A stretch of DNA of 52,036 nucleotides, from the sequence record SRR31156797_7637. One strand, written 5' to 3'. The stretch's first letter is position 1, and each line of letters opens with the position of its first letter. Below, in pieces: positions 22,235 to 52,036 of the stretch. The position numbers and the translations under genes were made by a program. Under the pieces are notes generated by a model. It saw only the letters and a program-made list of their open reading frames with translations. It was not told the DNA's origin and made no database searches.

Positions 22235-22261
22235 CTCGCGCAGAGGCGCCAAGGCGCGAAA
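22235..22261 (+). repeat. solo left arm of 8-bp-unit palindromic repeat (family A)
   Basis: ctc-gcgcagag-gcgccaag-gcgcgaaa matches the left arms at 51331, 51473 and 51951. Confidence 0.75.
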
Positions 22262-22307
22262 ATAAGGCATGGGATATTGGAAACCTTAAAAGGAAAGTTT
22301 CAGAGAA

Positions 22308-22925
22308 ATGAACAATATTGAACACGCGTGCTCGAAAGCGGATAAAATTAGCGATTTTGCGCGAGGATATTTTGAGTATTTGGACAAAATTTTAGCGCAT
22401 TTCGACGTTGTCGCATTGGATCAGCTTGCCGAAGCGTTTCAGGAAGCGAGAAGGGAAGGCAATACTATTTTTGTCATCGGGAACGGCGGGTCTGCAACTA
22501 CCGCATCAACCATGGCCAACGATATGGGGTTCGATGTCGTGAAAAAGGCACGAATCAATAAGCCTTTCAAAGTTCTTGCCCTAACAGATAATACCGGGGT
22601 GATGTCGGCCATTGCAAATGATGTCGGATATGAAAATGTGTTTGTTGGGCAACTGGAGATCCAATTCAGGGCTGGAGACATGATCATATGTATTTCTGCC
22701 AGCGGGAATTCGCCAAACGTTGTCAAAGCCGCTGAATGGGTAAAAGAACGGGGCGGGAAGGTTGTTGGATTACTGGGTTTTGACGGTGGGCGTTTGAAGG
22801 AAATTTGTGACATCGTGTTGCATGTAGAGGCGCAAAACGGGGAATATGGTCCGGTAGAAGATGCTCATCTGATTTTCAATCATGTTCTTACCAGTTGGTT
22901 TCAGTGCAAACTGAGAAAATCATAA
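22308..22925 (+). CDS. SIS-domain sugar-phosphate isomerase (GmhA-related)
   Basis: IFVIGNGGSA, AIAND.GY..VF, ISASGNSPNV, GFDGG, YGPVEDAH. Confidence 0.88.
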   Translation: MNNIEHACSKADKISDFARGYFEYLDKILAHFDVVALDQLAEAFQEARREGNTIFVIGNGGSATTASTMANDMGFDVVKKARINKPFKVLALTDNTGVMSAIANDVGYENVFVGQLEIQFRAGDMIICISASGNSPNVVKAAEWVKERGGKVVGLLGFDGGRLKEICDIVLHVEAQNGEYGPVEDAHLIFNHVLTSWFQCKLRKS

Positions 22926-22935
22926 ACATTTTATA

Positions 22936-23050
22936 GACAGGATCCACAGGATTCTCAAGAATTTTTTCCGCTTAAAGCGGAATGGTTATTTTTCGGCTTC
23001 GTTCGGAAACCGAGAAAGCAATATACCCAATTAATCCTGTTAGTCCTGTC
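22936..23050. repeat. intergenic inverted-repeat (MITE/REP-like) element, family B
   Basis: gacaggatccacaggatt (22936-22953) versus aatcctgttagtcctgtc (23033-23050): 15/18 inverted match; internal hairpin ttccgct-taa-agcggaa (22966-22982). Confidence 0.75.
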
Positions 23051-23087
23051 CAAACATAATAATTACAATTAGGCTGAGGCTGTGCAT

Positions 23088-24020
23088 ATGGGTATTTTGA
23101 AGGGTGCAAAAGTTTTGATTGGGCCATCGTCATTTGCGGTCACTGACAAATCGCCTTTGGAACGGCTGTTATCAGCTGGATGTGAAGTGATTGATAATCC
23201 GTTCAAACGAAAATTGACAAAACCGGAGCTTCTGAATTTACTGAGTGACAATGTTACGGGTCTGATAGCAGGGCTGGAACCTTTGGACCGTGAAGTTCAG
23301 CAAAAATCAAGCCTAAGGGTCATTTCCCGCGTTGGTTCCGGACTGTCTAATGTGGATTTGAGAGCGGCAAAAGAACTGGGTATAGCTGTTCGTTTTACAC
23401 CGGATGGGCCTACCAACGCGGTTGCGGAGTTGACAATCGGAGCTTTGCTCAGTCTGATTAGGTTTGTTCCTGAAATGGATACCGACCTCCATGCCGGCAA
23501 ATGGAATAAAAAAATTGGCTTTCAACTGGAGGGTAAAACAGTGGTTATTATTGGTTTCGGAAGAATCGGGAACCGTGTGGCGGAATTACTATCGCCTTTT
23601 GGGGTTAGAATTTTGGTTGTGGATCCCAATTTGGCAGAAAAAGATATCGATTATCCTGTTTTATTGCTCGCAGACGCTTTGCCGGAGGCGGATATCATCA
23701 CAATCCATAGCAGCGGGGAAGAATGTGTTTTAGGCACTGAAGAGTTTTTCAGATTGAAGCATGGCGTCTACATTTTAAACGCTGCTCGGGGCGGGTTAAT
23801 TTCCGAACCATTGCTAATCGAGGCTCTGGAATCTGGAAAAGTGGCGGGCGCATGGTTGGATAGTTTTCAAAATGAACCGTATGAAGGTCCGCTTGCAAAT
23901 TATCGGCAGGTAATCCTGACGCCACATGTTGGTTCATATACCTATGAATGCCGGAAAAAGATGGAAACAGATGCGGTGGAAAATCTGATCAATGCCTTTG
24001 CCGGGTCTGAACGCAAATGA
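23088..24020 (+). CDS. D-isomer-specific 2-hydroxyacid dehydrogenase (SerA-like, no ACT domain)
   Basis: ISRVGSGLSNVD, AVAELTIG, IIGFGRIG, NAARGGLI, ILTPHVGS. Confidence 0.9.
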   Translation: MGILKGAKVLIGPSSFAVTDKSPLERLLSAGCEVIDNPFKRKLTKPELLNLLSDNVTGLIAGLEPLDREVQQKSSLRVISRVGSGLSNVDLRAAKELGIAVRFTPDGPTNAVAELTIGALLSLIRFVPEMDTDLHAGKWNKKIGFQLEGKTVVIIGFGRIGNRVAELLSPFGVRILVVDPNLAEKDIDYPVLLLADALPEADIITIHSSGEECVLGTEEFFRLKHGVYILNAARGGLISEPLLIEALESGKVAGAWLDSFQNEPYEGPLANYRQVILTPHVGSYTYECRKKMETDAVENLINAFAGSERK

Positions 24021-24796
24021 TCCTCGAAAATAACGCAAATGATATTGAAGAACAATACCGATGCCTTTCTGTTGCGGAGAAGGCCTCGGAAAGGGCGGGA
24101 AATCATTTACAGGAGTTAATGGGTTCTCAAATCAATGTTGTAGAGGAACTTCCACGAGACATCAAATTGGAGGCGGACCTGGAATCAGAGTCCATAATTC
24201 TGGAGGTTCTCAAGCGAGAAACAGATTTTCCGATTTTGACGGAAGAGCGTGGGTTACTACTCGATCGCAAAACCAGTACAGAAACCGAATACCGGTGGAT
24301 CGTGGATCCTTTGGATGGCAGCCTGAACTTTTCACGCGGGATGCCAATGTGTTGTGTGTCCATTGCCCTTTGGCAAGTCGCCAAACCGATTTTGGGAGTC
24401 GTTTACGATTTCAATCGGAGTGAAATGTACAAAGGGCTGGTTTCCGAAGGTACGTGGCTGAACAACAAGCCAATCAGCCCTTCTGAAGTGGATGAAGTTT
24501 CAAAGGCGGTTCTGGCTACGGGTTTCCCGGTGAGCAGTGATTTTTCTGAAGCATCTATTATGGCTTTCGCCAAGGATGTTCGCGCTTACAAAAAGATCCG
24601 TCTTCTGGGTTCCGCCGCTTTGTCTTTGGCCTATGTTTCTTGTGGCAGGGTAGACGCATATAGAGAGGATAATATCAAGATATGGGACGTTGCGGCCGGC
24701 CTCGCATTGGTCAATGCAGCCGGAGGACGAACAGGTTGCCGCGGTTACCCGCAAGATGAAATTGTCGATGTCTGGGCCGGCATTGTAATTGATTAA
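24017..24796 (+). CDS. inositol monophosphatase family sugar-phosphate phosphatase
   Basis: ILTEE, WIVDPLDGSLNF, RLLGSAAL, WDVAAG. Confidence 0.92.
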   Translation: MILENNANDIEEQYRCLSVAEKASERAGNHLQELMGSQINVVEELPRDIKLEADLESESIILEVLKRETDFPILTEERGLLLDRKTSTETEYRWIVDPLDGSLNFSRGMPMCCVSIALWQVAKPILGVVYDFNRSEMYKGLVSEGTWLNNKPISPSEVDEVSKAVLATGFPVSSDFSEASIMAFAKDVRAYKKIRLLGSAALSLAYVSCGRVDAYREDNIKIWDVAAGLALVNAAGGRTGCRGYPQDEIVDVWAGIVID

Positions 24797-24844
24797 GTCA
24801 TATGCTTTAGGTTATCGGAGGAGGAAGTAATTCATTTAAAACCA

Positions 24845-26176
24845 ATGAAAATTGTTCATTTTGCAAAGAATATAGTGAACGGTGCGGGGAGGGCTGCGTA
24901 TCGATTGCACAGAGCGCTTTTGGATGAAGGCGCTGAATCCCTAATGCTTGTCAACAACAAAACCGGTTTTGATGATACTGTTGTTGGGCTTACGGGTCCT
25001 TCCATGGTTAGCAAAGGCCGCTTTCCAAGACTGCCGGGGGATTTCCTCAACAGGGCATCGGATTTACTCCCTTTTTTCATTCAAAAAGAAAGATGGGCTT
25101 TACTTAAGCGGAAATGGCAGCCGCGAACGCTTTTCAACATGAATATCTCTTTCGTTCCCATGAGGAGGCTGATGAAGTACACTGAAGGGGCGGATATCGT
25201 ATGCGTACATTCGGCGGAATCTGTCCTTTCGTCAGATATGGTACGAAAGATTTACGAGCTCACCCTTGCACCAATCGTGTGGACTCTAATGGACATTGAG
25301 CCTGTCACGGGAGGTTGCCATTTTAACGATGGCTGCGATCGTTTCACCAATAACTGCGGAAACTGTCCACAAATATCCAACCCAATGGAAAAAGATATAT
25401 CCAGAAAGATCTGGAACCAGAAGAAAAGAGACTATGATGGAGTTCCTATGACTCTTGTTGCCGTTACAAGCAACTCAATGGAACAGGCCAGACAGAGTTC
25501 CTTGTTCAGAGACAGTAGGATTGAAAAGATTTTTTTGAGTGTTGATGAAACGATACGGAATAAAGTGGATATGTACGTTGCACGAGAAGCCCTAGGCCTG
25601 CCGAAGGACAAAAAGCTCATTCTGTTCGGTTGCTTTAGTCTGGATGACAAACGAAAGGGCGGAGACTATTTGTTGAACGCGCTTATGAAAATGCCAGAGA
25701 AAGTTGATCCGAAGACCAGCGATTTTGTTGATTCCATCGTTTTGGTCACTATGGGGAGAAAAGGCTCTTTTGATGGAACAAAATTGCCTATGGAGTGGGT
25801 TCATCTGGGCGCCGTCAATGATGATAGAGTGGTTTCTCTGGTTTATAATGCATGTGACGTTTTCGCTTGTCCTTCCATTGACGATGTCGGGCCTATGATG
25901 ATCAATGAGGCATTTAGCGCAAGAACACCAGTGGTTGCTTTCGACTCTGGTGTTGCGCCAGATTTGATCTTATCAGACGATGCCGGCCATGTTTCCAAAC
26001 ATGGTGACACAAGTCGTTTCTGTGAGGGTATTGTGAAGTGTCTTTTTTCGCAAACAACATCTTCTGGCAACCCAAACAAGGTCAGTCGGTTAAGAGATTC
26101 GCTCAGACCCGAATACCAAGGGATAAAATACATCTCACTGTTCGAGGAGTTGCTTAAGAAGAAAAGAGTGAAGTAA
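24845..26176 (+). CDS. GT4-type glycosyltransferase (WcaC-like, Cys-rich insert)
   Basis: GAGRAAYRLH, TGGCHF..GC..F...CGNCP, RKGG, YNACDVFACPS, EAF...TPVVAF. Confidence 0.85.
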   Translation: MKIVHFAKNIVNGAGRAAYRLHRALLDEGAESLMLVNNKTGFDDTVVGLTGPSMVSKGRFPRLPGDFLNRASDLLPFFIQKERWALLKRKWQPRTLFNMNISFVPMRRLMKYTEGADIVCVHSAESVLSSDMVRKIYELTLAPIVWTLMDIEPVTGGCHFNDGCDRFTNNCGNCPQISNPMEKDISRKIWNQKKRDYDGVPMTLVAVTSNSMEQARQSSLFRDSRIEKIFLSVDETIRNKVDMYVAREALGLPKDKKLILFGCFSLDDKRKGGDYLLNALMKMPEKVDPKTSDFVDSIVLVTMGRKGSFDGTKLPMEWVHLGAVNDDRVVSLVYNACDVFACPSIDDVGPMMINEAFSARTPVVAFDSGVAPDLILSDDAGHVSKHGDTSRFCEGIVKCLFSQTTSSGNPNKVSRLRDSLRPEYQGIKYISLFEELLKKKRVK

Positions 26177-26248
26177 GTTGTTCGGTCAATTTAGGAATTC
26201 TCAACAGGATTTTGGGGAGTTGCCTTGAGAAGAATTTGAGGAGGCCTT

Positions 26249-27016
26249 GTGGGTTCAAAACCGGTTGTGTGCATAACCGCTGACGTTCATCATGACCTGG
26301 GGGACGCAGCGCCGAAATACAGCAGAAACGAGCATCAGCATGCACTTGAATATCAGAATGTTCTAGAGAAATATGGTGGAAAGGCAACCTATTTTGTAAC
26401 AGGAAAATGCCTGGATGATAATTCGGATTTTTGGAAATCCTTTTCGAAAAAAGATGTTGAGGTGGGGGGACACACATATTGGGCATTCAGGCCCAGAATT
26501 GTACTCAAACTCAACAGACTTCTCTTTCGTTCTATCTATGGCGGCCGCAAGTACCAGAAAATTGATGTTGAGAAGTGCTTCAATGCCTTCTCAAGACTTG
26601 GAATAAGAATGCGCGTGTGGCGCACTCACACTTACTTTAAAAGCCAATATGTCTATTCGCTTCTGGCTAGAGGGGGTGTAAGGATCATCTCAGATATCAG
26701 GAAACCGGAGTTGGAGCTAAGAACAATCAGAGGCCAAATCCATGTCCCTATTACATGCTTGAATGACGATAGAATTCATATGTTTCACTGCCACGGGGAT
26801 GGAGTTGAGATGATGCATGAGTGGTATCGGATAGAGAAAGACATTTTGGATAGGGCATACAAAAAAGATGATGTGGTAATTTTGCTTCACCCTAGTACAA
26901 TGAAAATGCTGGATGACTTCTGCTCTTTCGAAAAGGTTGTCACTGCCTTCAAAGATAGGGAATATCGATTTGTCACGATGAGTCAGTTGGTGAAAGAAAG
27001 ATTAGGTGCAAACTGA
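26249..27016 (+). CDS. polysaccharide deacetylase (NodB/CE4-like)
   Basis: CITADVH, KATYFVTG, EVGGHTY, ILLHP, YRFVTM. Confidence 0.75.
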   Translation: MGSKPVVCITADVHHDLGDAAPKYSRNEHQHALEYQNVLEKYGGKATYFVTGKCLDDNSDFWKSFSKKDVEVGGHTYWAFRPRIVLKLNRLLFRSIYGGRKYQKIDVEKCFNAFSRLGIRMRVWRTHTYFKSQYVYSLLARGGVRIISDIRKPELELRTIRGQIHVPITCLNDDRIHMFHCHGDGVEMMHEWYRIEKDILDRAYKKDDVVILLHPSTMKMLDDFCSFEKVVTAFKDREYRFVTMSQLVKERLGAN

Positions 27017-27058
27017 AAATGGAATTCTACGTTCCTCAAAAATAAAGTTGATTGTTCT

Positions 27059-27847
27059 GTGTTTTCGAGAAACGAAATAATTCGGTATTTTGACCAATTT
27101 GAAGACTATGGTGTCTATTACCAAGGGCCATGGAAATACTACAGGCATCATTGTACACGTATTTTGACTTGTGCATATGAATATTTTGACAATGATATAA
27201 AGGTTCTCGATTTGGGCTGCGGGAGAATGTCAAGCTTGCCGGCATTAGTTGCAGATGATCGGATAGCTGAATACTATTGCGTTGATTCTTCTCCGGAAAG
27301 CCTTAAGGCACTACGGGCTTCATTTGAGAATGTGACAAAAGTTAAGATTGTGGAATCAGAGATATGTAATTTTGCTGCGTCCTACTCCGGAAAATTTGAT
27401 ATCATTATCTTATTCGGTGTGATCATGTATCTGCCTCGACCCGATGTCCTCAAGCTGTTTGTTGAACTGAATCGGATTCTAAGCAGTGAAGGGATAATTT
27501 TCATTCATGAGCCAAATCAAAAAGGAAAAAAGGGGTTGGACGCATATGGTATGCCATTATCACGGCAGTTTTTAAATAAGATTACAGAGAAGATTGAGGG
27601 CTGTAATGTAGAAGAGCTACAAAGCTTTAATATAATCAGATTAAGAAGAATTATTTCGCTTTTTTTGAGAAGCCTATCGAAAGTCCTTGCAACTCTTGGT
27701 TATGAACCAAAGAAATCCGCGGTGTTCCGTCTAGTTTCAGAATTTGCTTGGTACGTAGAAAATAAATTGGAAATCCTTCTGGCACAAAAAATGCTGGGTT
27801 GCGATTGGGCCATCCTACTTCGGAAAGGTACTCCCGGGGGGAACTGA
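27059..27847 (+). CDS. class I SAM-dependent methyltransferase (start uncertain, see findings)
   Basis: VLDLGCG, CVDSS, FDIII, GIIFIHEP. Confidence 0.8.
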   Translation: MFSRNEIIRYFDQFEDYGVYYQGPWKYYRHHCTRILTCAYEYFDNDIKVLDLGCGRMSSLPALVADDRIAEYYCVDSSPESLKALRASFENVTKVKIVESEICNFAASYSGKFDIIILFGVIMYLPRPDVLKLFVELNRILSSEGIIFIHEPNQKGKKGLDAYGMPLSRQFLNKITEKIEGCNVEELQSFNIIRLRRIISLFLRSLSKVLATLGYEPKKSAVFRLVSEFAWYVENKLEILLAQKMLGCDWAILLRKGTPGGN

Positions 27848-27987
27848 GACAAGATGCTTTCAAACTTTTTCGTATCGTCTGGAGACCATCGACGGTAAGT
27901 ATTCGAAGGCAGAAATATGGGGCTCTCGATATATCATAAGGCTTTAGTAATTAATGATTATAGTGGTTTTTTTTAAAGGAAAAGCAT

Positions 27988-28548
27988 TTGAAGCTACTGG
28001 ACCTCGGATGTGGTATTAGAAAAAGAAATGGCGCAATTGGTGTGGACATTGTACAAAATCAAGTTGTTGATGTTGTTCATGACTTGAATCGGTTTCCATG
28101 GCCTTTTGATGATGACAGCTTTGATGATATTTTGATGGACAACTCGTTGGAGCATTTTGAGAGTGTTGTAAGAATAATGGAGGAAGTTTATAGGATTTCA
28201 AAACACGGTGCCGATATAACGATAAAGGTTCCATATTTTAGGAGCCATTATGCGATAGACCCCACTCATAGAAGCTTTTTCGCCTCTCATTCATTTGCTT
28301 ATTTCGATCCCTCCCATAGCTGGAATAAATATTATAGATACTCTAACATAAAATTCTATGTTAAGAGTGTAAAATTCGATGAAAACCGTCGCTATTCAAA
28401 ATTAGGGATGCTACTCTTCACCTTGCCTAGAAGGATAGCAAACAGTCGGCCAATGTTCTACGAGCGTTATTTAGCTCCATTTTTCCCCTTGAATGAAATA
28501 ACTTTCTATCTAGAAACCTTAAAATGTGGTAAGCCGGATCATGAATGA
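27988..28548 (+). CDS. short SAM-dependent methyltransferase (Methyltransf_11-like)
   Basis: LDLGCG, DVVHDLNRFPWPFDDDSFD, LEH, DPTH; TTG start after AAGGA. Confidence 0.85.
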   Translation: MKLLDLGCGIRKRNGAIGVDIVQNQVVDVVHDLNRFPWPFDDDSFDDILMDNSLEHFESVVRIMEEVYRISKHGADITIKVPYFRSHYAIDPTHRSFFASHSFAYFDPSHSWNKYYRYSNIKFYVKSVKFDENRRYSKLGMLLFTLPRRIANSRPMFYERYLAPFFPLNEITFYLETLKCGKPDHE

Positions 28549-28628
28549 CTTTGGCCCAAAGGGTTAATATGAGTTGCCAACAGCACTGCAACACACTGTT
28601 TTGTTAATAAAATATAGGAATAAAGAGG

Positions 28629-29681: not shown

Positions 29682-29801
29682 TATCAAGATGTTGTATTGT
29701 ACATCTTTTTGGACCAGCCCTGAACAGACAATAAATAGACCTCCTCTTAATTATCCCCCCCACGAACTCAAAGTTATAGATCGAAACGATATTTAACCCC
29801 C

Positions 29802-36923: not shown

Positions 36924-38781
36924 TTTCCCGTTAGGGATTTTTCATAGAATCAGGGGATCTTTCTACGGCAAAAACAAAATTCCCCGTTATGCGATTTCTA
37001 CTACAGAAGACCTTTTTTCCATTGGAGCAGCCGAAAACAAAAGAAGGTTCAGCAATTTTTTTCTATCGGATCAGGACCAAGAAAAAAAACTTATTAGAAT
37101 TGCAAGTGAATTCTGTGAGGGCTTTGTGACTATCTATGGAAAAAGAATCCTGCTGAGCAATTTTGCGGTAAACAAATTCAAAAAGAATATTGCAGAAAAA
37201 CATGTTTTTTTTCGTGACATCCGGTTTTATTGGGAACTTTATAGGGCCAAATATGTCTACAATGTTGGGCTTGCCTATTTGCTTACGGGTAACGAAGCCT
37301 ATGCAAAGGCACTGTTAGACCACATTCTAGAGCTCGACAGCTTCAACCCACTTTGCGGTAACGACATGCCATACAACGGCATGGAAGTCGCCTTAAGACT
37401 GATGAACCTTTCATGGCTGGATATTTTCCTGGCGGATTTTTCAGGGTATATTTCTGAAGTCCGGGAACGCCTAATTTCAGGTTTAGTATACCACGCTGAA
37501 TATATCTACAAAAACTATGATATTACATTCTACGGCCTTGAATCAAACCACGGCCTGACATGTGCTGTGGGTCTCGTTTATGCCTCTTTGCTGTTTTCAA
37601 ACTATTCCAGAGCCGGAAAATGGCGTAATTTCGGCATGCGTGCCTTAAGGAGGGGATTAAAGAAACAATTTACACCCGACGGAGTCAATTTCGAATCTTC
37701 CGTTCAATACCACCGGTTTGTTTTTGAACTGTTGGTTTTCATTTTGGCTGCTCTTTATAAGAGCGGAATCGCAGTTGACCGTGAAATTGAAAGAAGGGTA
37801 AGACAAATGGGCGAAGCCTTGAGGGCGCTCACCCACAAAAACGGCTGCATTTCAAGGATTGGGGACAGTGACGGCGGCAAATTCCTCCCGGACCTGGGTA
37901 GCACTGAAGAATTCAATGATATGTCTTATCTTGACTGGTTTTTTTTGGAGCAATCCCCCCCTCGTTACGAAACCCTTCTTTTTGAAGGTATCGCGCCACT
38001 GAAAGCGCTTTTTCGTTCGAGTGGCTGCAAGGCAATGCGCAGGCATCGGTACGGAAACTACGTTTCTTATAAAAATCAGGATGTCAGCCTGATTATTTCC
38101 GCAAATGAGATCGGTACCCGCGGAAAGGGAAATCATCAGCATAATGACTTCTTATCTTTTGAGCTCTACAGCACATTTCCTTTCATCGTGGACCCATGGT
38201 CCTATTGCTACACGGGTAACAAGGAGCTGCGAAATGAAGATCGAAAGACATACAGGCATAACACCGTGGAATTGGATGGTCGGGATATCGTGGAGTTTGA
38301 TGAGAACAGGCTGTTTGAAATGCTGAGCAATATTAAGACGAAAATTGGAAATTTGTATGAAAATGAGTCGATTTGGGGTGTGGAACTTTATCATAACGGA
38401 TACAGGGGATTGCCTAAAGGCTCCCAGATCCATAGCCGGAAATTTATTATAGATCGGAAAATTTGCCAGTTGGTGATTCAAGATCATTTGGGAGGTAGAG
38501 GTTCACATATCGCACGGTTTAATTTTCATATTCCGAAAAGGTACTGGCTTTTTAAAAGGCATGAAGATTGTTTACATTTTTTTAATAATATGTGGGAATT
38601 CAGTCTGAGGAATGATGTGTCGGAATTTGCCGTAGCAGAAAGCTTCATAAGCGACTGGTTCTTGGAAAAAACGCCTTCTTATCATGTGTTTTTTAAAAAG
38701 AAATATGTTGATAGCTTAGTCTGCAATTTAACAATTACTTACCGTAGAAAGGCTGGCAACAATAAGAGGGAGACCCAATGA
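36889..38781 (+). CDS. heparinase II/III-like protein
   Basis: [58 protein letters not shown]; start 36889 preferred over 36724. Confidence 0.85.
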
Positions 38782-40076
38782 AAAAAGTTTACGTAGGAAT
38801 GAGCGCGGATCTCATCCATCCCGGGCACATTAACATTATTGAAGCAGCTGGAAAGCTAGGTGAGGTAACGGTTGGTTTGCTAACAGATGAAGCCATAGCG
38901 AGTTATAAGCGCGTGCCTTATTTAGATTACGAACAAAGAAAGAAAGTAATCGAAAACATAAAGTACGTAGCGTGCGTAATTCCTCAACATACTCTGGATT
39001 ATTCTGAGAACCTTAAAACGATGCGGCCGGACATCGTTGTGCATGGAGATGACTGGCGCTCGGGAATTCAGCTGGAAACGAGAAACAAGGTCATCTCTAC
39101 TTTGGCAGAGTGGGGTGGAGAACTTGTTGAGCTTCCTTATACCAAGGGAATTTCATCTACCATACTGAATGAAAAGGTTAAAGAGGTCGGAACCACACCG
39201 GATATCAGGTTGCGAAGACTCAAAAGATTGATTGATGCAAAACCAATTGTGAGAGTTTTGGAAGTCCACAGCGGTCTTTCGGCTTTAATTGTGGAAAATC
39301 TTAGATTGGTACAGGAAGGTGGGTTTGTCGAATTTGATGCCATGTGGTCAAGCAGCCTAACGGATTCTACTGTCAAAGGAAAACCGGATATTGAGGCTGT
39401 TGATCTGACCTCAAGAATGCAAACTGTAAACGATATCTTTGAAGTAACTACGAAGCCAATGATATTTGATGCGGATACTGGGGGGAGGCCCGAGCACTTT
39501 ATTTTCAAGGTCAAATCACTTGAGCGATTAGGAGTGTCTGCACTTATTATAGAAGATAAATTCGGACTTAAGAAAAACTCTCTTTTGGGAAATGAAGTTC
39601 CGCAACAGCAGGAATCAGTTGAAAACTTCTGTTTCAAAATAAAATCTGGAAAACAAGCTCAAGTAACAGACGATTTTATGATTATTGCTAGAATTGAAAG
39701 CTTCATTCTTGAAAAGGGACTCGATGATGCGCTTAAAAGGGCGGAGGCTTACATCGGCGCAGGTGCAGATGGTCTCATGATACATAGTCGAAAGAAAAAC
39801 GCCGAAGAAGTATTTGATTTCTGCAAGGAATATGAATCATTCGATCATCGTGTGCCGTTGGTTGCAGTCCCTACCACTTACAACCGGGTTTTTGAAGTCG
39901 ATCTTATGCAAGCCGGTGTAAATGTGATTATATATGCGAACCACCTTTTACGCGCCTCCTATCCAGCGATGGTCAGTGCGGCTGAGTCAATACTCCAAAA
40001 CGGAAGAACGCTTGAAATCAATGACCAGTGCACTTCAGTAAAGGAAATTTTAGATCTTATTCCAGGAACGAGATAG
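38778..40076 (+). CDS. pepM: phosphoenolpyruvate mutase with N-terminal HxGH cytidylyltransferase domain
   Basis: PepM signature [10 protein letters not shown] (EDKx5NS); N-terminal [21 protein letters not shown]. Confidence 0.95.
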
Positions 40077-40082
40077 GCTTAT

Positions 40083-41222
40083 ATGGATACCAAGAAATTT
40101 CATGCAAGAGCTTTTTATAGAATTCTTCAGGAAAATGGCATTTCTTTTTTCTCCGGTGTGCCCGATTCAACGCTGAAATCATTGTGCAATTATCTTTTTT
40201 CGCATGTCTCCAAAGATGACCACGTTATATGCGCTAACGAAGGCGCGGCTGTTGCGCTTGGTGTAGGGTATCATTTGGCAACAGATAAGATTCCTGCTGT
40301 TTACATGCAAAATTCCGGATTGGGCAACGCAGTAAACCCACTTGTTTCGATTGCAGATCCTGAAGTTTATTCCATCCCTATATTGCTAATTATTGGGTGG
40401 AGAGGTAAACCTGGGGAAAAGGATGAACCACAGCATAAAAAGCAAGGCCGAATTACTTTACCGCTGTTAGATACGCTTGAGATTCCTTACGTTGTTTTAA
40501 ATGGTGATAATATGGCCTTATTAAGGCAAGTTGAAAAAGCTAAATTATATATGGAATCTAAAAGAACTCCGTTTGCTCTGGTGGTAAGCAAGGGGCTTTT
40601 TGAATCTTACATACCCCAGTCTTCTGTGAAGCAAGGATTAGAATTAACAAGAGAGGGCGCGATCAGATTGGTGATCAATTCCTTGGAATACGGGCGAGAC
40701 TTCATTGTTTCGACCACAGGTATGACGTCGAGAGAGCTTTTTGAATACCGTGAAGAAATTGGCGAAGGACATGGTGCCGATTTTCTGACTGTTGGCGGTA
40801 TGGGTCACGCGTGTCAAATTGCCCTGGGAATTGCCATGCAAAAAGCTGATAAACGAATTGTTTGTATTGATGGTGACGGCGCTGTAATAATGCATATGGG
40901 CTCACTCGCTATCAATGGTTTACAAAAGTGCAGAAACTTTCTCCACGTCGTAATAAACAATGGTTCTTATGATTCAGTTGGAGGGCAGCCAACAGTTGGA
41001 TTTCAAATAGATTTTAGAAAAATTGCTCTTGCGGTAGGTTATGAAAGTGTATTTCGCGCAAATAACAAAAAAGATTTATCGGATATTCTTCGGAGTCTAG
41101 ATAAAAATACCGGGCCTGTATTCTTGGAGATATTTACCCGGAGAGGCGCCAGAAAAAATCTCGGTCGTCCAACCTTAACACCTTTGCAAAACAAGGCCAA
41201 TTTTATGAGGCTTCTGGCTTGA
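40083..41222 (+). CDS. ppd: phosphonopyruvate decarboxylase (ThDP-dependent)
   Basis: GVPDS, NEGAA, QNSGLGN, DEPQH, STTG..SREL, GDGA...NN, SVGGQPT; directly after pepM. Confidence 0.93.
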   Translation: MDTKKFHARAFYRILQENGISFFSGVPDSTLKSLCNYLFSHVSKDDHVICANEGAAVALGVGYHLATDKIPAVYMQNSGLGNAVNPLVSIADPEVYSIPILLIIGWRGKPGEKDEPQHKKQGRITLPLLDTLEIPYVVLNGDNMALLRQVEKAKLYMESKRTPFALVVSKGLFESYIPQSSVKQGLELTREGAIRLVINSLEYGRDFIVSTTGMTSRELFEYREEIGEGHGADFLTVGGMGHACQIALGIAMQKADKRIVCIDGDGAVIMHMGSLAINGLQKCRNFLHVVINNGSYDSVGGQPTVGFQIDFRKIALAVGYESVFRANNKKDLSDILRSLDKNTGPVFLEIFTRRGARKNLGRPTLTPLQNKANFMRLLA

Positions 41223-42364
41223 AAACCAGTTTTTTTGGCTCGGGTAGTATCAATTCTCTTGGCCGCATACTGCCTTCATTAAATGCAGATACAGTTTTCT
41301 TGGTTACTGGTAGGAAATCTTTTGAAAGCTCAGGTGCCAGAGAAAAGCTGATGCCGTTTTTATCCGGCAAGAAGATCCAAATTTATGATGATTTTTCCAT
41401 AAATCCAAAATTAGAGGATGCCTGTAAAGGAATTGAAAAAATTATTGGTAATGGCTCCAAATTGGTAATAGCAATTGGAGGGGGCAGCACCATTGATATG
41501 GCAAAGTTAGTGAATATTCTTTCCTGCCAAAATGCCACCCCATCTGAAATTCTTCTGGGTAAAGTGGAAATTACGAAGAAAGGTAGACCTCTGATCGCAA
41601 TTCCAACGACAGCTGGATCTGGGAGTGAGACAACACACTTTTCTGTAGCCTATGTGGGGGGAAAAAAATATTCACTTTCTCACAAATATATTCTACCGAC
41701 ATATTCTATTGTTGACCCAGAACTGACCTATAACCTACCGGCAAAATTGACTGCTGTTTCTGGTTTTGATGCGCTAAGCCAGGCAGTTGAATCTTTTTGG
41801 TCCACAAGATCAAACCGTTTTAGTAAAGGTTATGCTGCAAGGTCAATAAGGCTGATTATTTCTAATTTTTCAAGGTCTGTGAATGCACCTGATAGAGCTA
41901 GCAGAACGAAAATGGCATTTGCGGCGCATTTAGCGGGGAAAGCGATCGATATAACGACAACTACTGCACCCCATGCCATTTCCTATTCTTTAACAACTAA
42001 TTTCGGCATTCCACATGGACATGCCGTTGCGTTAATATTACCGGCCTTTTTCTCGTTAAACTCTAAGGAGAACAGCAATATTTGTCTTAATGAAAGCCGG
42101 GGGTCAACATACTTAAAAGAAACAATGAATTGCCTGATGTCCTTATTCGGTGCCAGTAATCCTTTGGAATGCAAAAAGAAGTGGTACGAATTGATGGAAA
42201 CTGTTGATCTTGAAACTGATATGAAAAAATTGGGTTTAGATTCTGAAGAAAAAATTAAAAAAGTAGTAAGTGAAGTGAATTATCAGAGGCTGATGAATAA
42301 TCCGGTTTTCTTGAATGAACAGCAGCTAGAAGAAATAATGTTTGAGGTCTTAAGTAGGCAGTAG
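41219..42364 (+). CDS. iron-containing alcohol dehydrogenase; putative phosphonoacetaldehyde reductase
   Basis: GGGSTIDMAK, PTTAGSGSE, DALSQAVES, TTAPHA.SY, IPHGHA; follows pepM-ppd. Confidence 0.88.
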   Translation: MKTSFFGSGSINSLGRILPSLNADTVFLVTGRKSFESSGAREKLMPFLSGKKIQIYDDFSINPKLEDACKGIEKIIGNGSKLVIAIGGGSTIDMAKLVNILSCQNATPSEILLGKVEITKKGRPLIAIPTTAGSGSETTHFSVAYVGGKKYSLSHKYILPTYSIVDPELTYNLPAKLTAVSGFDALSQAVESFWSTRSNRFSKGYAARSIRLIISNFSRSVNAPDRASRTKMAFAAHLAGKAIDITTTTAPHAISYSLTTNFGIPHGHAVALILPAFFSLNSKENSNICLNESRGSTYLKETMNCLMSLFGASNPLECKKKWYELMETVDLETDMKKLGLDSEEKIKKVVSEVNYQRLMNNPVFLNEQQLEEIMFEVLSRQ

Positions 42365-42453
42365 GTATTAAATTTTGCTCGCCCAATTATCGATTTTAAG
42401 AATTAATAATGCAGGACGAGATTTAGATACTGGGGAAATCTGGGAGGGTCATT

Positions 42454-43518: not shown

Positions 43519-43538
43519 AAAACTGCATTGACTGAAAT

Positions 43539-44669: not shown

Positions 44670-44710
44670 CTCCGCCAGAGTTGTAATGGCCAAAAACAAT
44701 AGGACTTAAA

Positions 44711-46858: not shown

Positions 46859-46881
46859 CGCGGATACCCGCAATCAAAATG

Positions 46882-46910
46882 TCTCGCGCAAAGAGGTTTT
46901 CTTTTTTTTG
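46882..46910 (+). repeat. degenerate/truncated family A repeat
   Basis: tctcgcgca-aagaggtttt-cttttttttg resembles the left end plus T-rich spacer of the 51951 copy. Confidence 0.55.
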
Positions 46911-46959
46911 TCACGGAAAACCTTGAAATTATGGGCTAAACCGGTTAAGGAGAACGGTC

Positions 46960-48150
46960 ATGCTCCCTCCTTTTGCGGCAGCCACCTTGTCTCTCGAAAC
47001 CTCACTCAATCTCCTCATAGAGTATATAGAGAAGCACCACTACCGGGGATATGACCCCTACGATGCACTGTTATCTCCTGTTTTTCACCTTCCTTTTATC
47101 AATAGAAACAAGTTACTGCGTTTCGGGTCGCAGCAATTCCTGAAGCGTTTCCCGTTGAACATCAGGCCGTTTCTTCTGCTCCCCAAAGGTCTGAACCCGG
47201 TCTCTCTCGGGTTGTGCATTCAGAGCTATGCCTATTTGAGCCGGGTTTATCCCCAGGAACTGGATGCACTGATCCAAAAGATCAAGGCGCTAACAGAGAG
47301 ACTAAAATCCCTGATACCCTCCGGTTATTCCGGCGCCTGCTGGGGTTATGATTTTGACTGGGAGGCGCGGCATGCCAGGATACCGGCGTTTCAGCCCACG
47401 GTGGTGGCGACGGGCATTATCACCAACGCCCTGTTCACGGCCTGGAGGCTCACGGGGCTAAAGGAGTGCGGGGATTTATGCTTAAGCGCTGCTGAATTTG
47501 TTTTGAGAGACCTTCATCGGACCTGCGATGTCGCCGGCCGTTTATGTTTTTCCTACTCGCCGTTTGATAAGCAACAGGTTTTTAATGCCTCCATGAAAGG
47601 GGCCCGGCTTTTGGCGCAGGTTTGGTCTGAAACGGATCTGCCTGAGCTGAGAGATACCGCCCTGGCTGCTGTTGATTTTGTGGTAAAACAGCAAAGAGAA
47701 GATGGCTCATGGGGGTATTCACTGGCATCCGGTGGCGGATGGTCGGACAATTACCACACGGGGTATGTCCTCGATTGTTTGGAGGAATACATTCTCCTGA
47801 CAGGAGATGGGATGCACCAGCAGTCCCTTGAAAAAGGGTACGCCTTCTACAAAAAGCATTTTGTGACTGAGGAAGGGATTCCGAAATTTTACCATAATTG
47901 TCTTTACCCGGTGGACTGCACGGCTGGAGGTCAAACCCTACTGACCCTGTGCCGGTTTGCCGATATTGAACTGGCTGAAAAGGTGGCTACCTGGATGTGC
48001 GGCCATATGCAGAGTGCCGAGGGGTATTTCTATTTTCGGAAATTGCGTCGATACACCATAAAAACTTCGTTTATGCGTTGGTCCAATGCGTGGATGTTTG
48101 CCGGGCTTGCGTATCTCCTCTACAAAAATACAGAAAAACCTTCCTTATGA
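46960..48150 (+). CDS. conserved glycan-locus protein, alpha/alpha-toroid-like (function unknown)
   Basis: GYDPYDAL, CWGYDFDW, SYSP, NAS, QREDGSW.Y, DNYHTGY, MRWSNAW; repeated Q..DG.W-type helical motifs. Confidence 0.65.
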   Translation: MLPPFAAATLSLETSLNLLIEYIEKHHYRGYDPYDALLSPVFHLPFINRNKLLRFGSQQFLKRFPLNIRPFLLLPKGLNPVSLGLCIQSYAYLSRVYPQELDALIQKIKALTERLKSLIPSGYSGACWGYDFDWEARHARIPAFQPTVVATGIITNALFTAWRLTGLKECGDLCLSAAEFVLRDLHRTCDVAGRLCFSYSPFDKQQVFNASMKGARLLAQVWSETDLPELRDTALAAVDFVVKQQREDGSWGYSLASGGGWSDNYHTGYVLDCLEEYILLTGDGMHQQSLEKGYAFYKKHFVTEEGIPKFYHNCLYPVDCTAGGQTLLTLCRFADIELAEKVATWMCGHMQSAEGYFYFRKLRRYTIKTSFMRWSNAWMFAGLAYLLYKNTEKPSL

Positions 48151-49268
48151 AGTTTCTGATCTATCTGGGCCATCCCGCCCACTTCCATCTCTTCAAACTC
48201 ACCATAAAAAATCTCGAAGGGACAGGACACAGCGTAACGGTCCTCATCAAGAAGAAAGACATCCTTGAGGAGCTTCTTCAGCGATGCGGCATGAATTATG
48301 TTAATATCCTGCCCGAAGGGCGTAAGGACAGCAAGGCAGGTATAGCATTCGGGGTTTTTAAGAGAGATTTGCGGCTTTTTCGCTATTGTCTGGCGAACCG
48401 CCCAGATTTGCTCGCAGGCACTTCAACGGAAATTGGGCATGTGGGCACGCTCCTGAGAATACCGTCCGTTAACGTGAATGAGGATGATGCGGATGTGGTG
48501 CCCTTGTACAGCAAGCTTAGCTACCCTTGGTGCAGCCATATCCTGTCTCCCAGAGTATGCGATAACGGCAAATGGGAGAATAAGTCAATCAATTATGAAG
48601 GGTACCATGAGCTGGCCTATTTGCACCCATGCCATTTCACCCCCTCTCGCGAGATCGTTGAATCAATTCTGGGAACAAACGGTCCATTTTTTCTATTGAG
48701 ATTTGCCAGACTAGCTGCGCACCACGATGCAGGGGTGAATGGCATTAACAATGCCCTTGCCGGCAAAATTATCGATATCCTCTCTCCAAAGGGTCAGGTG
48801 TTCATCAGTTCAGAAAGGGAGCTGCCTCATAACCTGGAAACCTACGGCATCAGGATAAACCCGGTGGATATCCATCATGTAATGGCCTTTTCCCAATTGT
48901 ATATCGGAGACAGCCAGACCATGGCGGCTGAGGCTGGGGTATTGGGGACCCCGTTTGTGCGGTTCAATGATTTTGTCGGCAGGATTGGCTACCTGAATGA
49001 ACTGGAGAACAAATACCGGCTGGGATATGGAATAAAGCCCAACAATCCTGAAGCGCTCTTTTCTACCATTGCGGATCTGGTAAATATAGAAAACCTGAAG
49101 GCCGTCTTTGCTGAAAGGAGGAAGGCGATGTTGCGCGATAATATAGACGTGGCACAATTCATGACTTGGTTTCTGGAGAATTATCCGGAAAGTGTGAGGG
49201 TCATGCGGGAAGATCCGGATTATCAGTATCGGTTCCGGTCTGCGGATTACGCAGAAGACATAAATTAG
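48147..49268 (+). CDS. DUF354-like GT-B-fold protein
   Basis: HPAHFHLFK, GYHELAYL, AAHHD, GDSQTMAAEAGVLGTP; ATGA overlap with the upstream stop. Confidence 0.8.
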   Translation: MKFLIYLGHPAHFHLFKLTIKNLEGTGHSVTVLIKKKDILEELLQRCGMNYVNILPEGRKDSKAGIAFGVFKRDLRLFRYCLANRPDLLAGTSTEIGHVGTLLRIPSVNVNEDDADVVPLYSKLSYPWCSHILSPRVCDNGKWENKSINYEGYHELAYLHPCHFTPSREIVESILGTNGPFFLLRFARLAAHHDAGVNGINNALAGKIIDILSPKGQVFISSERELPHNLETYGIRINPVDIHHVMAFSQLYIGDSQTMAAEAGVLGTPFVRFNDFVGRIGYLNELENKYRLGYGIKPNNPEALFSTIADLVNIENLKAVFAERRKAMLRDNIDVAQFMTWFLENYPESVRVMREDPDYQYRFRSADYAEDIN

Positions 49269-49277
49269 GTGTAGGTG

Positions 49278-49305
49278 TCTCGTGCAGAGACGCAGAGGGA
49301 TGAGG
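49278..49305 (+). repeat. solo left arm of family A repeat
   Basis: tctc-gtgcagag-acgcagag-ggatgagg, about 10 nt after the DUF354 stop. Confidence 0.7.
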
Positions 49306-49330
49306 ATCAGGATTGATTGCTTCATAAACA

Positions 49331-51325
49331 ATGACCCAGACACATACGGAACCAAAAACCCTGCTTGACGCCATGCCGGCATTTGTGTTGGCAATGGTGG
49401 ATTTCGCCCTGCTGAACCTGGCGTTTTTTCTAGTGACCTATTGTAAGCGCGGGGGCGTGGACTTGAGCACCCGGTATGGGAAGCTTCTGGTGGCGTTTTA
49501 TGGGATCTGGCTGGTGGTCTCGCTGGTGAATAAAAAGTTTCGTGCCAATGAATATGAGCGGTTCTTACCGGATGTGTGGAAGGTGCTGCGGTCCGGTGTC
49601 TATTTGACCTACTGTGTGGCCATGATGGTGGTGCTCATGGGGCTGTATGCCTTTTCACGGGGTCAGGTGTTTGGGACGTGTGCCGTGTTTGTGGTGCTGG
49701 AGTGCATGGTGCTGGCGGGACTTTACAGGCCGTGGAAGCTGCGGAATATCATGGCCGGGGAAAAAGTTTCGGCCATAAAACGTCCGTCGCGCGTCGACTG
49801 GCGTCTGGTGGTGGTGGATTTTGTTCTGGTGGGGGCTTCTTTCTGGATTGTCAATTACTTTAAACGGGATGGGTTCCATGTCCTGCCGGACTATGAAAAA
49901 CTGCTTCTGCTCATGTACGGGCTGTGGTTTGTGTGTTCCCTCTCCACTCGAAAGTTCGAGTGGCTACCGTACAATAATTACTACCATGCCCTGTGGCCCT
50001 GGATCAAGGCTGTGGTGCTTATGGGGCTGGCCCTGGGGCTGATTCTGTTTTTGTTTCGATTTTTGTACTTTGCAAGGAGCCAGGTTTTTGCGCCCCTGCT
50101 GCTGGTTCTGGGGCTTGAGGCGCTCATGTACCGGGTTTACTACTATCGGCGGCGGACCGTGGACGCAAACCGTGATATTGAATCCGGCGATACGGTGCAA
50201 GGCATTTTAAAGCAGGAGCCTCTGGAAATTGAAACCGACCCGGAGATTTTAAAAAAGGTGTTTCTGTCCCCCGTTCGGGAACGGGTTCGGGACCGGTATC
50301 TGAAAAACGCCCCGAAGCTCTTTGAACTTCTGGACCGTTCCGTGGATATGGGAAATATTTTGCGGGCTGAGATGGATTTTCGAAACAGCATTGATCCGCC
50401 GTACCATGATCCGGGTGAAGACCGGTATAAGCGGTTGTTTATGAATCTGCTCAAGGTGAATGATATAAGGTATTTGAACCGGTATTTTCTGGCGGTGGGC
50501 GCGGTGCTGGTTCCCGGAGGGTACCTGGTGGGCCGAGCCCATACCATTGACACCCATCGCAAATGGATGATGAAAAAATTTCCCCGCATTATCGCAAATG
50601 CGCTGTATGCCGTTGATTTTCTGTTGAACCGAGTGTGTCCCAAGCTGCCCTGGGTTAAACAGTTGTATTTTTCCGTGACCCGGGGGCGAAACCGTAGTCT
50701 TTCCGAAGCGGAGCTGCTGGGACGACTGTATTTTTGTGGATTTGAGATTGTGGCTGAAGAAAACATTGATGAGCGGCTCTGTTTTGTGGCCCGAAAATCC
50801 AAAACCACATCCCATTCCGAAAATCCCTCGTACGGGCCCCTGGTGGGGTTCAACCGGCTGGGTGCAGGGAACAAGCCCATTCGCACGTACAAGTTTCGCA
50901 CCATGCACCCCTATTCCGAATTTTTGCAGGATTACGTGTATGAGAGGCACGGTCTTAAAAAGGGGGGGAAGATTGAAAATGATTTCCGTATTACGGCCTG
51001 GGGAAAGGTCATGCGCAGGCTGTGGCTGGATGAGCTGCCCATGCTGTACAACTGGGTGCGGGGGGATTTGAAGCTGTTTGGGGTGCGGCCCTTGAGCCCC
51101 CATTATTTCAGTTTGTACCCGGAAGACTTGAAGCAACTGAGGGAGAAGGTGAAGCCGGGTCTGGTGCCGCCTTTTTATGCGGATATGCCGGTGACCTTTG
51201 AGGAGATCTGTGAATCGGAGCGGCGGTATATTCAGGCGTATTTGAAGCGGCCGTTTCGGACACAGGGGGTGTATTTCTGTAGGGCGATTTGGAATATTGT
51301 GGTGAAAGGGGCGCGGAGTGGGTGA
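49331..51325 (+). CDS. initiating polyprenol-phosphate sugar transferase (Bac_transf domain) with duplicated N-terminal membrane module
   Basis: C-terminal YKFRTM, DFRIT..GKVMRR..LDELP.L.N..RGD..L.G.RP, VKPGL motifs. Confidence 0.85.
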   Translation: MTQTHTEPKTLLDAMPAFVLAMVDFALLNLAFFLVTYCKRGGVDLSTRYGKLLVAFYGIWLVVSLVNKKFRANEYERFLPDVWKVLRSGVYLTYCVAMMVVLMGLYAFSRGQVFGTCAVFVVLECMVLAGLYRPWKLRNIMAGEKVSAIKRPSRVDWRLVVVDFVLVGASFWIVNYFKRDGFHVLPDYEKLLLLMYGLWFVCSLSTRKFEWLPYNNYYHALWPWIKAVVLMGLALGLILFLFRFLYFARSQVFAPLLLVLGLEALMYRVYYYRRRTVDANRDIESGDTVQGILKQEPLEIETDPEILKKVFLSPVRERVRDRYLKNAPKLFELLDRSVDMGNILRAEMDFRNSIDPPYHDPGEDRYKRLFMNLLKVNDIRYLNRYFLAVGAVLVPGGYLVGRAHTIDTHRKWMMKKFPRIIANALYAVDFLLNRVCPKLPWVKQLYFSVTRGRNRSLSEAELLGRLYFCGFEIVAEENIDERLCFVARKSKTTSHSENPSYGPLVGFNRLGAGNKPIRTYKFRTMHPYSEFLQDYVYERHGLKKGGKIENDFRITAWGKVMRRLWLDELPMLYNWVRGDLKLFGVRPLSPHYFSLYPEDLKQLREKVKPGLVPPFYADMPVTFEEICESERRYIQAYLKRPFRTQGVYFCRAIWNIVVKGARSG

Positions 51326-51329
51326 AATA

Positions 51330-51390
51330 TCTCGCGCAGAGGCGCAGAGAGAAAGAGATTTTTTGTTTTTTTTAGCGACTCTGCGCGAGA
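51330..51390. repeat. family A palindromic repeat, copy 1
   Basis: Perfect 12-bp terminal inverted repeat tctcgcgcagag ... ctctgcgcgaga around an A-rich/T-rich spacer. Confidence 0.9.
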
Positions 51391-51418
51391 ACATATGAGT
51401 TGATAAAGGTTGATATTC

Positions 51419-51458
51419 CAAAGGCCGTTGGGGAAACCTTGCGGCCTTTGTTGTTTTT
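51419..51458 (+). terminator. putative intrinsic terminator ending the glycan operon
   Basis: 9-bp stem caaaggccg (51419-51427) / cggcctttg (51442-51450) followed by ttgttttt. Confidence 0.65.
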
Positions 51459-51472
51459 GGATTATACTATGG

Positions 51473-51548
51473 CTCGCGCAGAGGCGCTGAGACGCAAAGA
51501 AAAAGAGATTCTTTTGTTTTTCTTTGCGCCTTTGCGTCTCCGCGCGAG
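51473..51548. repeat. family A palindromic repeat, copy 2
   Basis: ctc-gcgcagag-gcgctgag-acgcaaag-aaaaa ... ttttt-ctttgcgc-ctttgcgt-ctccgcgc-gag. Confidence 0.9.
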
Positions 51549-51562
51549 AATGGAACTTTTCC

Positions 51563-51945
51563 ATGACGGAAAATGAGATTGGGACGATTGTGGTTGATGC
51601 CGCTGTGAGGTGCATATGGCACTGGGTCCGGGTTTTTTGGAAAGTGTTTACGAGACTGTGCTGGCTCACGAGATTTCAAAGCGAGGGCTGGGTTTAAAAC
51701 GGCAGGTTCCGATTCCCATAGAATATGATGGCCTTCGGTTTGATGAAGGTTTTCGGGCCGATATCGTTGTGGAAAAGAAGGTTGTGCTTGAACTGAAATC
51801 CGTTGAAAGGGTGACCGCGGCCCATAAGAAACAGATTCAGACGTACCTTTGGCTTACGGGATGTAGGCTCGGGTATCTTTTGAACTTCGGTGCGGCGTTG
51901 ATGAAACAGGGAATAACGCGGGCTGTGAACAATCTTGTGGAATAA
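51563..51945 (+). pseudogene. GxxExxY protein (PD-(D/E)xK nuclease-like), frameshifted near 51608
   Basis: ATG 51563 gives MTENEIGTIVVDAAV; another frame from 51610 gives VHMALGPGFLESVYE...RADIVVEKKVVLELKS; only 2 nt (ag) separate the two parts. Confidence 0.82.
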
Positions 51946-51950
51946 TTGTT

Positions 51951-52020
51951 CTCGCGCAGAGGCGCGGAGAGAAAGGTTTTTTTTGTGTTTTTTCTTAGCG
52001 TCTCTGCGTCTTGGCGCGAG
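51951..52020. repeat. family A palindromic repeat, copy 3
   Basis: ctc-gcgcagag-gcgcggag ... cttagcgt-ctctgcgt-cttggcgc-gag, 5 nt after the GxxExxY stop. Confidence 0.88.
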
Positions 52021-52036
52021 GTTTTAGGTTATTCAT

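Follow-up and report, generated by a model that had tools for sequence, protein, structure and literature searches.

The described system closest to the one reported here is that of the REPINs, doublets of REP sequences that go together with REP-associated tyrosine transposases (RAYTs) (PMC3116915). We analyzed a stretch of 52,036 nucleotides from sequence record SRR31156797_7637 (hereafter the window), in which palindromic repeats built of 8-nt words, named family A, surround a gene of the GxxExxY (PDDEXK_3) nuclease family. Like REPINs, the family A repeats are short intergenic palindromic hairpins, with many gene-less copies against one or a few small cognate genes that have these repeats on both sides; every gene goes with a repeat group of its own, and the hairpin doublets are far more numerous than the gene, as illustrated below by the counts for genomes G005 and G002. 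REPINs are not known to have target-site duplications, which is another likeness. Different from RAYT, which is an HUH/Y1 transposase (IS200/IS605-like), the present gene encodes a PD-(D/E)xK nuclease; the arms are tandem arrays of a 7–10 nt word, whereas a REPIN is made of one REP motif; the present word occurs in many phyla, in both gene-in-loop and hairpin-gene-hairpin layouts; and no transposition intermediates have been seen. A Pfam scan of 46 open reading frames (ORFs) of the window found no RAYT/Y1 transposase family. The REP/RAYT analogy drawn in the original prediction, which was made from the letters of the window, is the best available, but membership in that system fails on the lack of a Y1 transposase among these ORFs and on the word-array nature of the arms.

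Other known systems resemble the element in part. Miniature inverted-repeat transposable elements and their parent insertion sequences also combine terminal inverted arms around a gene with gene-less miniatures; different from them, the present element lacks a transposase family as well as target-site duplications (1 of 37 cassettes), and its arms consist of iterated words. The ORF-bearing intervening sequences of 23S ribosomal RNA (rRNA) carry a small ORF in the long stem of their inverted flanks and are harmless in the transcribed unit. The small ORF enclosed by inverted flanks is common to both, but the present element lies outside rRNA (no rRNA match) and its ORF is of a different family. 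Integron attC cassettes are comparable in that imperfect palindromes bound small accessory modules, including toxin-antitoxin pairs, as they do at locus L144 described below; here, however, no integrase was found among the window ORFs scanned, and the arms are nuclease-specific word arrays. Tandem heptamers form a last group, and the cyanobacterial STRR repeats are of the same kind. TAACTGA heptamers before start codons in Beggiatoaceae, cyanobacteria and Bacteroidetes were proposed as translational regulators; their arrays are almost all direct (169 sets versus one indirect repeat), and the abstract of that report names no nuclease (PMC4679880). As far as that account goes, both kinds of array consist of words repeated 2–6 times, are intergenic and often lie just before starts, and in both one word occurs in distant phyla, by no known route. 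One Akkermansiaceae cassette (L132) even has a related word, CACTGATT/AACTGATT. Different from the TAACTGA arrays as described there, the present ones are inverted pairs tied to GxxExxY genes.

In the window, the three full copies of family A (H1–H3, Table 1) share one architecture: CTC and two or three RCGCAGAG octamers, followed by an A-rich and then T-rich loop and by the inverse arm. At up to 2 mismatches, the motif CTCGCGCAGAGRCGC has eight matches (22235+, 49279+, 51331+, 51375-, 51473+, 51534-, 51951+ and 52006-), compared with 0.07 expected, and none of 100 shuffles gave eight. The inverted-repeat arms were located at 51330-51354/51366-51390 in H1 and at 51473-51504/51517-51548 in H2. 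The fold energies of H1, H2 and H3 are -34.2, -49.0 and -35.0 kcal/mol, respectively (z -7.8, -6.7 and -4.7; equalled by 0 of 200 shuffles). The motif, inverted-repeat and fold tests all confirmed the predicted full copies at 51330, 51473 and 51951, the last two flanking the GxxExxY gene. To the view that the repeats are a chance similarity or low-complexity sequence without biological meaning we give practically no credence. In its favour, an exact 15-mer did hit plain coding sequence of GC-rich genomes at 60 of its 123 loci in the genome collection, but the other 63 loci have two or more words in register, and chance is ruled out by the motif count, the folding and the conservation at an orthologous locus described below. 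H1–H3 were also tried as plain intrinsic terminators and rejected: none of them appeared in a terminator scan of 49200-52036, and their T run lies inside the loop.

Table 1. Positions of the repeats and of the neighbouring features in the window
Feature	Position	Strand	Remarks
Hairpin H1, gene-less, two octamers in left arm	51330..51390	+	5 nt past sugar-transferase stop
Hairpin H2, three octamers per arm	51473..51548	+	14 nt upstream of GxxExxY start codon
Hairpin H3	51950..52021	+	5 nt past GxxExxY stop
GxxExxY / PDDEXK_3 nuclease gene, pseudogene	51563..51945	+	1-base deletion near 51608
Single left arm, three octamers (GCGCAGAG, GCGCCAAG, GCGCGAAA)	22235..22260	+	intergenic, 73 nt 5' of SIS-domain gene
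Single left arm, 1 mismatch to motif	49278..49298	+	10 nt past DUF354 stop; arm end 33 nt 5' of sugar-transferase start
Degenerate copy: terminal TCTCGCGCA and T-rich loop-like stretch	46882..46911	+	intergenic
Priming sugar transferase	49331-51325		664-residue protein
Terminator-like hairpin with T-rich tail	51419-51458		between H1 and H2; 13 pairs, -22.3 kcal/mol, z -3.6

Single left arms in the same orientation had been predicted shortly after stop codons at 22235, 46882 and 49278. All three are intergenic; they lie 51, 24 and 10 nt past the stops at 22184, 46858 and 49268, and the next start codon is 73, 78 and 53 nt downstream, respectively. The arms at 22235 and 49278 are clear, whereas the copy at 46882 is weaker: it was missed at up to 2 mismatches, yet it has the terminal 9-mer (4 exact matches in the window versus 0.19 expected) and the T-rich loop, and it looks like a copy with an internal deletion. 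The folding of the three single arms is no better than chance (z +0.35, -0.51 and -1.95), as expected for half elements.

Other words were observed next to these arms. Directly 3' of the arm at 49278, a short array of another word (GGATGAGGATCAGGATTGATTG) occupies positions 49298-49319, and similar arrays follow the single arms of L144; the intergenic gaps here resemble stacks of different word arrays. At 22936-23051, in the gap 3' of the SIS-domain gene, a palindrome of a second word family with ACAGGAT-type arms (GACAGGATCCACAGGATT ... TTAATCCTGTTAGTCCTGTC) encloses about 80 nt of non-coding cargo that has small hairpins of its own. The ACAGGAT word class also brackets GxxExxY genes in other genomes (L134 and L137).

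The gene between H2 and H3 starts in a frame different from that of the rest, with one base fewer near 51608 than an intact orthologue. In the frame after 51604 it matches PF13366 (2e-37, 128.5 bits, cut-off 22) and TIGR04256 (5.6e-37, 126.7 bits, cut-off 35), and its product (P0001) contains the GFLESVY, RADIVV and LELK motifs. In 46 relatives, E27, Y30, D67, E77 and K79 either do not vary or reach at least 90% conservation, Q91 and Y95 are likewise invariant or nearly so, and all seven are kept in the window gene. This DNA occurs in a single public run, of which a second, independent assembly gives the frameshifted sequence unchanged (0 differences, depth 35). The window may itself come from that run, and the second assembly excludes a one-assembler artefact rather than confirming the frameshift from independent data. 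The AlphaFold model of an intact relative (pLDDT 95) has a restriction-endonuclease-like fold. The best rows of the structure search were 3ijm (Z 8.6), the BpuSI nuclease domain (8.2), Cas4 SSO0001 (7.9) and Hjc (6.5); the fold searches, Foldseek included, returned generic PD-(D/E)xK neighbours only, none standing out, and the fold therefore gives no hint as to the kind of substrate (junction, duplex or RNA). A sequence search of solved structures gave no match at E up to 1. The function of GxxExxY/PDDEXK_3 is given as unknown in PMC3424549, at least where the family is listed there, and PMC8934634 mentions GxxExxY in passing only, as a domain beside a reverse transcriptase.

The tie between gene and arms was followed across genomes. 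Five octamer-carrying genomes gave 20 TIGR04256 matches, two of them halves of one split gene. Inverted arrays enclose nearly all of the 17 genes whose flanks were inspected, and the word differs from gene to gene, also among the genes of a single genome; the words seen are CGCAGAG, CGCAGAT, CGCAAAG, CACAGAG, CACGAAT, CACGAAG, CACTGATT, ACGGATT and ACAGGAT. A further 30 loci came from a sample of 121 genomes of one phylum. Among 50 GxxExxY genes, a set that includes two genes twice, 39 have inverted flank arms that score above the 95th percentile of mismatched gene pairs (median score 17.5 versus 8). Arm compatibility rises with protein identity (Mantel/Spearman rho 0.43, permutation p 0.001, 31 cassettes). 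Of the genes at 60% identity or more, 20/24 have a CGCRRRG-type word in a flank; the share is 16/27 at 45–60% and 5/26 below 45% (77 distinct genes, p 1.2e-5). Co-variation of the repeat with GxxExxY across genomes had been set beforehand as a check, and the correlation, the word class and the genome-level comparison given below all came out in its favour. The joint variation of word and protein extends over phyla as well as genomes.

With moderate confidence, we interpret family A as the octamer-word branch (RCGCAGAG, outer end CTCGCGCAGAG) of a widespread nuclease-plus-repeat element. The full form of this element would be a gene for a PD-(D/E)xK nuclease of about 125 residues (GxxExxY) bracketed by inverted short-word arrays; its derivatives would be single arms and hairpins, the latter either gene-less or with a short non-coding cargo. 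The window contains a gene copy with a complete hairpin on either side, a further hairpin and three single arms. The nuclease would recognise its own word array, be it in the form of duplex iterons or of an extruded or single-stranded hairpin, and would cut there. Repair or recombination at the cut would then copy or move hairpins and cassettes, gene-less copies being served in trans, as has been proposed for a RAYT and its REPINs. A single arm would be the remnant once one half had disappeared at such a break or had given way there to foreign DNA, and for this reason single arms may mark module junctions. Spread of the repeats, cleavage and module exchange are what we infer on this model.

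A metagenome scan with the sugar transferase as query gave 18 loci. At L144, the sugar transferase is 82% identical over the C-terminal 200 residues, and downstream of it an intact 127-residue GxxExxY gene, 84% identical to that of the window, lies between two same-word hairpins. This cassette is followed by a VanZ-like gene and then by a third hairpin, and the last bases of the window are similar to the start region of the L144 VanZ-like gene. Because L144 has the same layout, the hairpin-gene-hairpin unit is older than the split of the two organisms, and the gene an old resident. Between the two GxxExxY genes dN/dS is 0.056 (dS 1.56), which indicates that the gene was kept by selection and that the break in the window is recent. 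The window copy is a long-standing resident at the 3' edge of a polysaccharide locus, maintained by strong purifying selection until the 1-base deletion broke it. The arms are better conserved than near-neutral sites: 58 of 69 positions of the three alignable arms are identical between window and L144, compared with 70 of 127 third codon positions (p 3.9e-5) and 26 of 50 loop positions (p 2e-4). The right arm of H2 contributes 22/27 and the arms of H3 contribute 18/19 and 18/23; the left arm of H2 is not in the alignment, its L144 counterpart being degenerate. These identities suggest that the arms are either constrained or homogenised among copies.

One comparison of whole genomes speaks for the nuclease-plus-repeat element. 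The family was found in 33 of 39 genomes picked from many phyla for their RCGCAGAG arms versus 58 of 121 in the phylum sample (p 6.7e-5), and close homologues of the window gene (E 1e-40 or better), whose own flanks have CGCRRRG words, in 17 of 39 versus 10 of 121 (p 2.5e-6); these 39 genomes, however, belong to other phyla than the control sample, and this is the first of several points that weigh against our explanation. The Mantel result can reflect a gene and its arms inherited as one unit, not recognition. Inside the phylum sample, the family is not significantly commoner among arm-rich genomes (8 of 11 with at least 8 hits, versus 50 of 110 others, p 0.12), and a family search found no GxxExxY in the arm-rich G078 and G117 and fragments only in G045, which are incomplete draft assemblies. 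A GxxExxY gene lies within 1.5 kb in only 1 of 40 real-arm genome loci with flanks (L012). On IMG/VR contigs, which are predicted viral, family A arms form at least 149 stretches (L222-L370), up to several per contig (for example five on one of 23.7 kb), and GxxExxY was found within 800 nt in 0 of 80 flanked loci. There is no general target-site duplication: a single cassette (L167, 12 nt) of the 37 has one, the longest shared flank word averages 4.0 nt versus 3.6 in mismatched pairs, and duplication as a general feature was rejected on this count. The gene is dead in the window, and activity here needs another copy elsewhere in the genome. The partnership of nuclease and arms rests on association, and activity, binding and movement are presumed. 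A long stay at one locus under purifying selection could be that of a domesticated gene, or of one useful to its host, just as well as that of a selfish gene. The concentration of repeats around the GxxExxY gene that had been claimed is a property of this window only; the enrichment near such genes that was expected elsewhere did not appear in the genome or viral-contig loci. The nuclease and palindrome system put forward in the original prediction is partly supported: gene family and repeats belong together (39/50, the co-variation, and the close homologues in arm-carrying genomes), and arms lie at both synteny breaks compared below, but proximity of the repeats to the gene is not general.

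Two of these loci deserve a description. At L167 (G021:C73, about 1470-1920), the cassette sits exactly between two genes, and the 12-nt direct repeat GAGAAAAAAATG at both arm ends includes the downstream start codon; judged by eye, the upstream neighbour ends like anthranilate synthase component I and the downstream one starts like component II. The arm-rich genome G045 (39 pattern hits) has only two GxxExxY fragments of 33-34 residues (L373, L375, on contig G045:C77), which look like decayed cassettes; arm hits of that contig come as close as about 25 nt to one fragment, and about 3.5 kb separates the other from the closest hit.

Arms without genes are far more common than genes. G005 has 428 pattern hits versus six genes and G002 has 194 versus seven, counts for which the control with the pattern reversed is invalid, as the reversed pattern also matches arrays of tandem words; many of the G005 hits lie at most a few hundred bases from the start of a contig. 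Relative to neighbouring ORFs, the single arms were oriented 4 versus 3 and 7 versus 3 (47 arm instances, 21 single, 80 flanked loci), counts too noisy in GC-rich DNA to be of use. Nearly every gene has arms and few arms have a gene, which is the REPIN/RAYT pattern (PMC3116915) and equally fits a nuclease that parasitises independent hairpins. If so, the cause would be reversed: the hairpins would be an independent family, spread by other means or kept by the host, and GxxExxY a homing-type gene. Its nuclease would cut gene-less hairpins within the loop or close to it, and the gene would be copied in via arm homology. We regard this as rather unlikely, although it accounts for arms that vastly outnumber the genes and are mostly distant from them, for arm-rich genomes without a detectable gene, for the many genes placed loop-like exactly between a left and a right arm (gaps 0-20 nt), for the lack of target-site duplication, and for hairpins that take insertions (the nested palindromes of L221 and a small palindrome in the L142 arm). 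On the other hand, it leaves the spread of gene-less hairpins unexplained, and the window has a hairpin-gene-hairpin arrangement instead of a gene within a loop. Decay after fixation is what is expected of homing genes, whereas this gene stayed at one locus under the purifying selection described above.

The palindromes of L221 (G002:C1:340500-344500) form six tandem copies of a 251-bp nested unit with outer RCGCAGAG and inner CGCAAGA-type arms. A hairpin loop of one word can therefore house a hairpin of a different word, and tandem amplification can involve entire units.

The conservation of the arms also bears on a role in RNA, in which hairpins at gene ends and purine-rich arrays before starts would act on the long polysaccharide transcript by stabilising it, processing it or adjusting its translation. 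The nuclease gene would then either have no part in this or help to process RNA, for which the 23S rRNA intervening sequences offer a parallel. All six window copies are intergenic and have their purine-rich word on the coding strand. L142, whose sugar transferase is 68% identical in protein sequence, retains the arm in front of that gene; the arms are better conserved than third codon positions, and the TAACTGA heptamers before start codons were proposed as translational regulators (PMC4679880). The sense RNA of six hairpins (three in the window, three in L144) folds better than the antisense by 0.7-11.7 kcal/mol, with 27 versus 7 G-U pairs; however, these hairpins are related by descent and do not make six tests, and the sense-strand advantage stems from the purine-rich/T-rich part near the loop. 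The mismatches of 38 independent gene-bracketing arm pairs have no strand bias (G-T 43, A-C 45, other 73). Word variants are often unmirrored between the two arms, which suggests that the words are kept and not the pairing. The Rfam covariance models, run on the whole window, gave 0 matches at the gathering score, and H1 is not required to end the operon, a separate terminator-like hairpin lying between H1 and H2. Recognition of the words by a protein is favoured over the RNA role because of the unbiased mismatches, the unmirrored variants and the lack of an Rfam match. The RNA-level alternative of the original prediction thus drew no support from the arm mismatches, and we hold it to be unlikely, though single arms before start codons may have such a role.

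The junctions around the sugar transferase allow the synteny breaks predicted at the repeats to be considered. What separates the sugar transferase from the cassette in the window is just H1 and the terminator-like hairpin. In the same interval L144 has a single left arm immediately behind the stop codon, then a RelE plus helix-turn-helix (HTH) pair, a second single arm and a ParE plus ribbon-helix-helix (RHH) pair, the latter flanked by arms of another word, CGCAGAT. At L142, the sugar transferase (68% identity, residues 1-428) is preceded by a left arm in the same place as the one at 49278; this arm holds a small nested palindrome, and the upstream neighbour gene differs from that of the window. 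Arms are thus present at both comparable junctions, but with only two cases, both of the same sample, this does not make the arms the cause of the change.

At 613-2650 of L144, the two toxin-antitoxin modules RelE+HTH and ParE+RHH, the latter on the other strand, are each bounded by same-orientation arms (RCGCAGAG and CGCAGAT). In L142, the frame of the sugar-transferase homologue ends at 1702, 9 codons past the match to residue 428 of 664, and up to 2700 the region 3' of this end (segment 1560-2700) has ORFs on the opposite strand. The gene may be interrupted near 1702, and a single genome may be the origin of both L142 and L144.

Arms at both of the breaks compared, and same-orientation arms that punctuate the RelE+HTH, ParE+RHH, GxxExxY and VanZ modules of L144, would also be expected if the arms were recombination sites of an integron-like cassette system with a recombinase encoded elsewhere, GxxExxY being just one frequent cassette. 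We consider this very improbable. No integrase or recombinase family is present among the 46 window ORFs scanned, and a shared recombinase would not predict that each GxxExxY gene has its own word and that the word tracks the protein. The arm cluster of G002 (L219), which was tried as a cassette array, was rejected: it consists of repeated 400-550 nt units without recognisable cassette genes, with 1 Pfam hit (a hydrolase) in 38 ORFs. A different and doubtful possibility is that tandem-word hairpins are docking sites of gene-cassette exchange, with the crossover started by the cognate GxxExxY nuclease. A circle with one hairpin and cargo (GxxExxY, toxin-antitoxin or non-coding) would enter a chromosomal hairpin to give hairpin-cargo-hairpin; excision would leave one gene-less hairpin, and failed or one-sided events would leave single arms at junctions. 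Such hairpins would amount to an integron-like capture platform without an integrase, across many phyla and viral contigs.

Searches by family name, accessions and arm sequence found no description in print of a nuclease-plus-word-array element (subscription journals and supplements lay outside the search), and the element, which is widespread, seems to be undescribed. The nuclease-plus-repeat reading would make the word-array palindromes a concrete, testable candidate substrate for the large GxxExxY/PDDEXK_3 family. The tie may also explain a class of intergenic repeats, found in many phyla and on viral contigs, that breaks assemblies, and it would give, beside REPIN-RAYT, a second system with a different enzyme for the coexistence of bacteria and palindromic repeats. 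For glycan loci, arms at module boundaries may mark sites where gene content changes.

The window itself is one long same-strand polysaccharide locus of 44% G+C. It contains NeuB-type and epimerase genes, a flippase, many glycosyltransferases, heparinase-like proteins and a phosphoenolpyruvate (PEP) mutase set. The order 3' of the sugar-transferase stop is H1, the terminator-like hairpin, H2, the GxxExxY gene and H3, and the polysaccharide operon probably ends before the GxxExxY gene. At 38778-42364, a PEP mutase fused to a cytidylyltransferase, a thiamine pyrophosphate-dependent decarboxylase and an Fe-alcohol dehydrogenase make up a phosphonate-making set; the polymer is probably decorated with phosphonate. 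The window ends at 52036, 15 nt past H3. The second assembly of the same run extends about 8.7 kb beyond this end, in a 60.7-kb contig, and several other contigs of that run have only arms in common, at a depth of about 10x.

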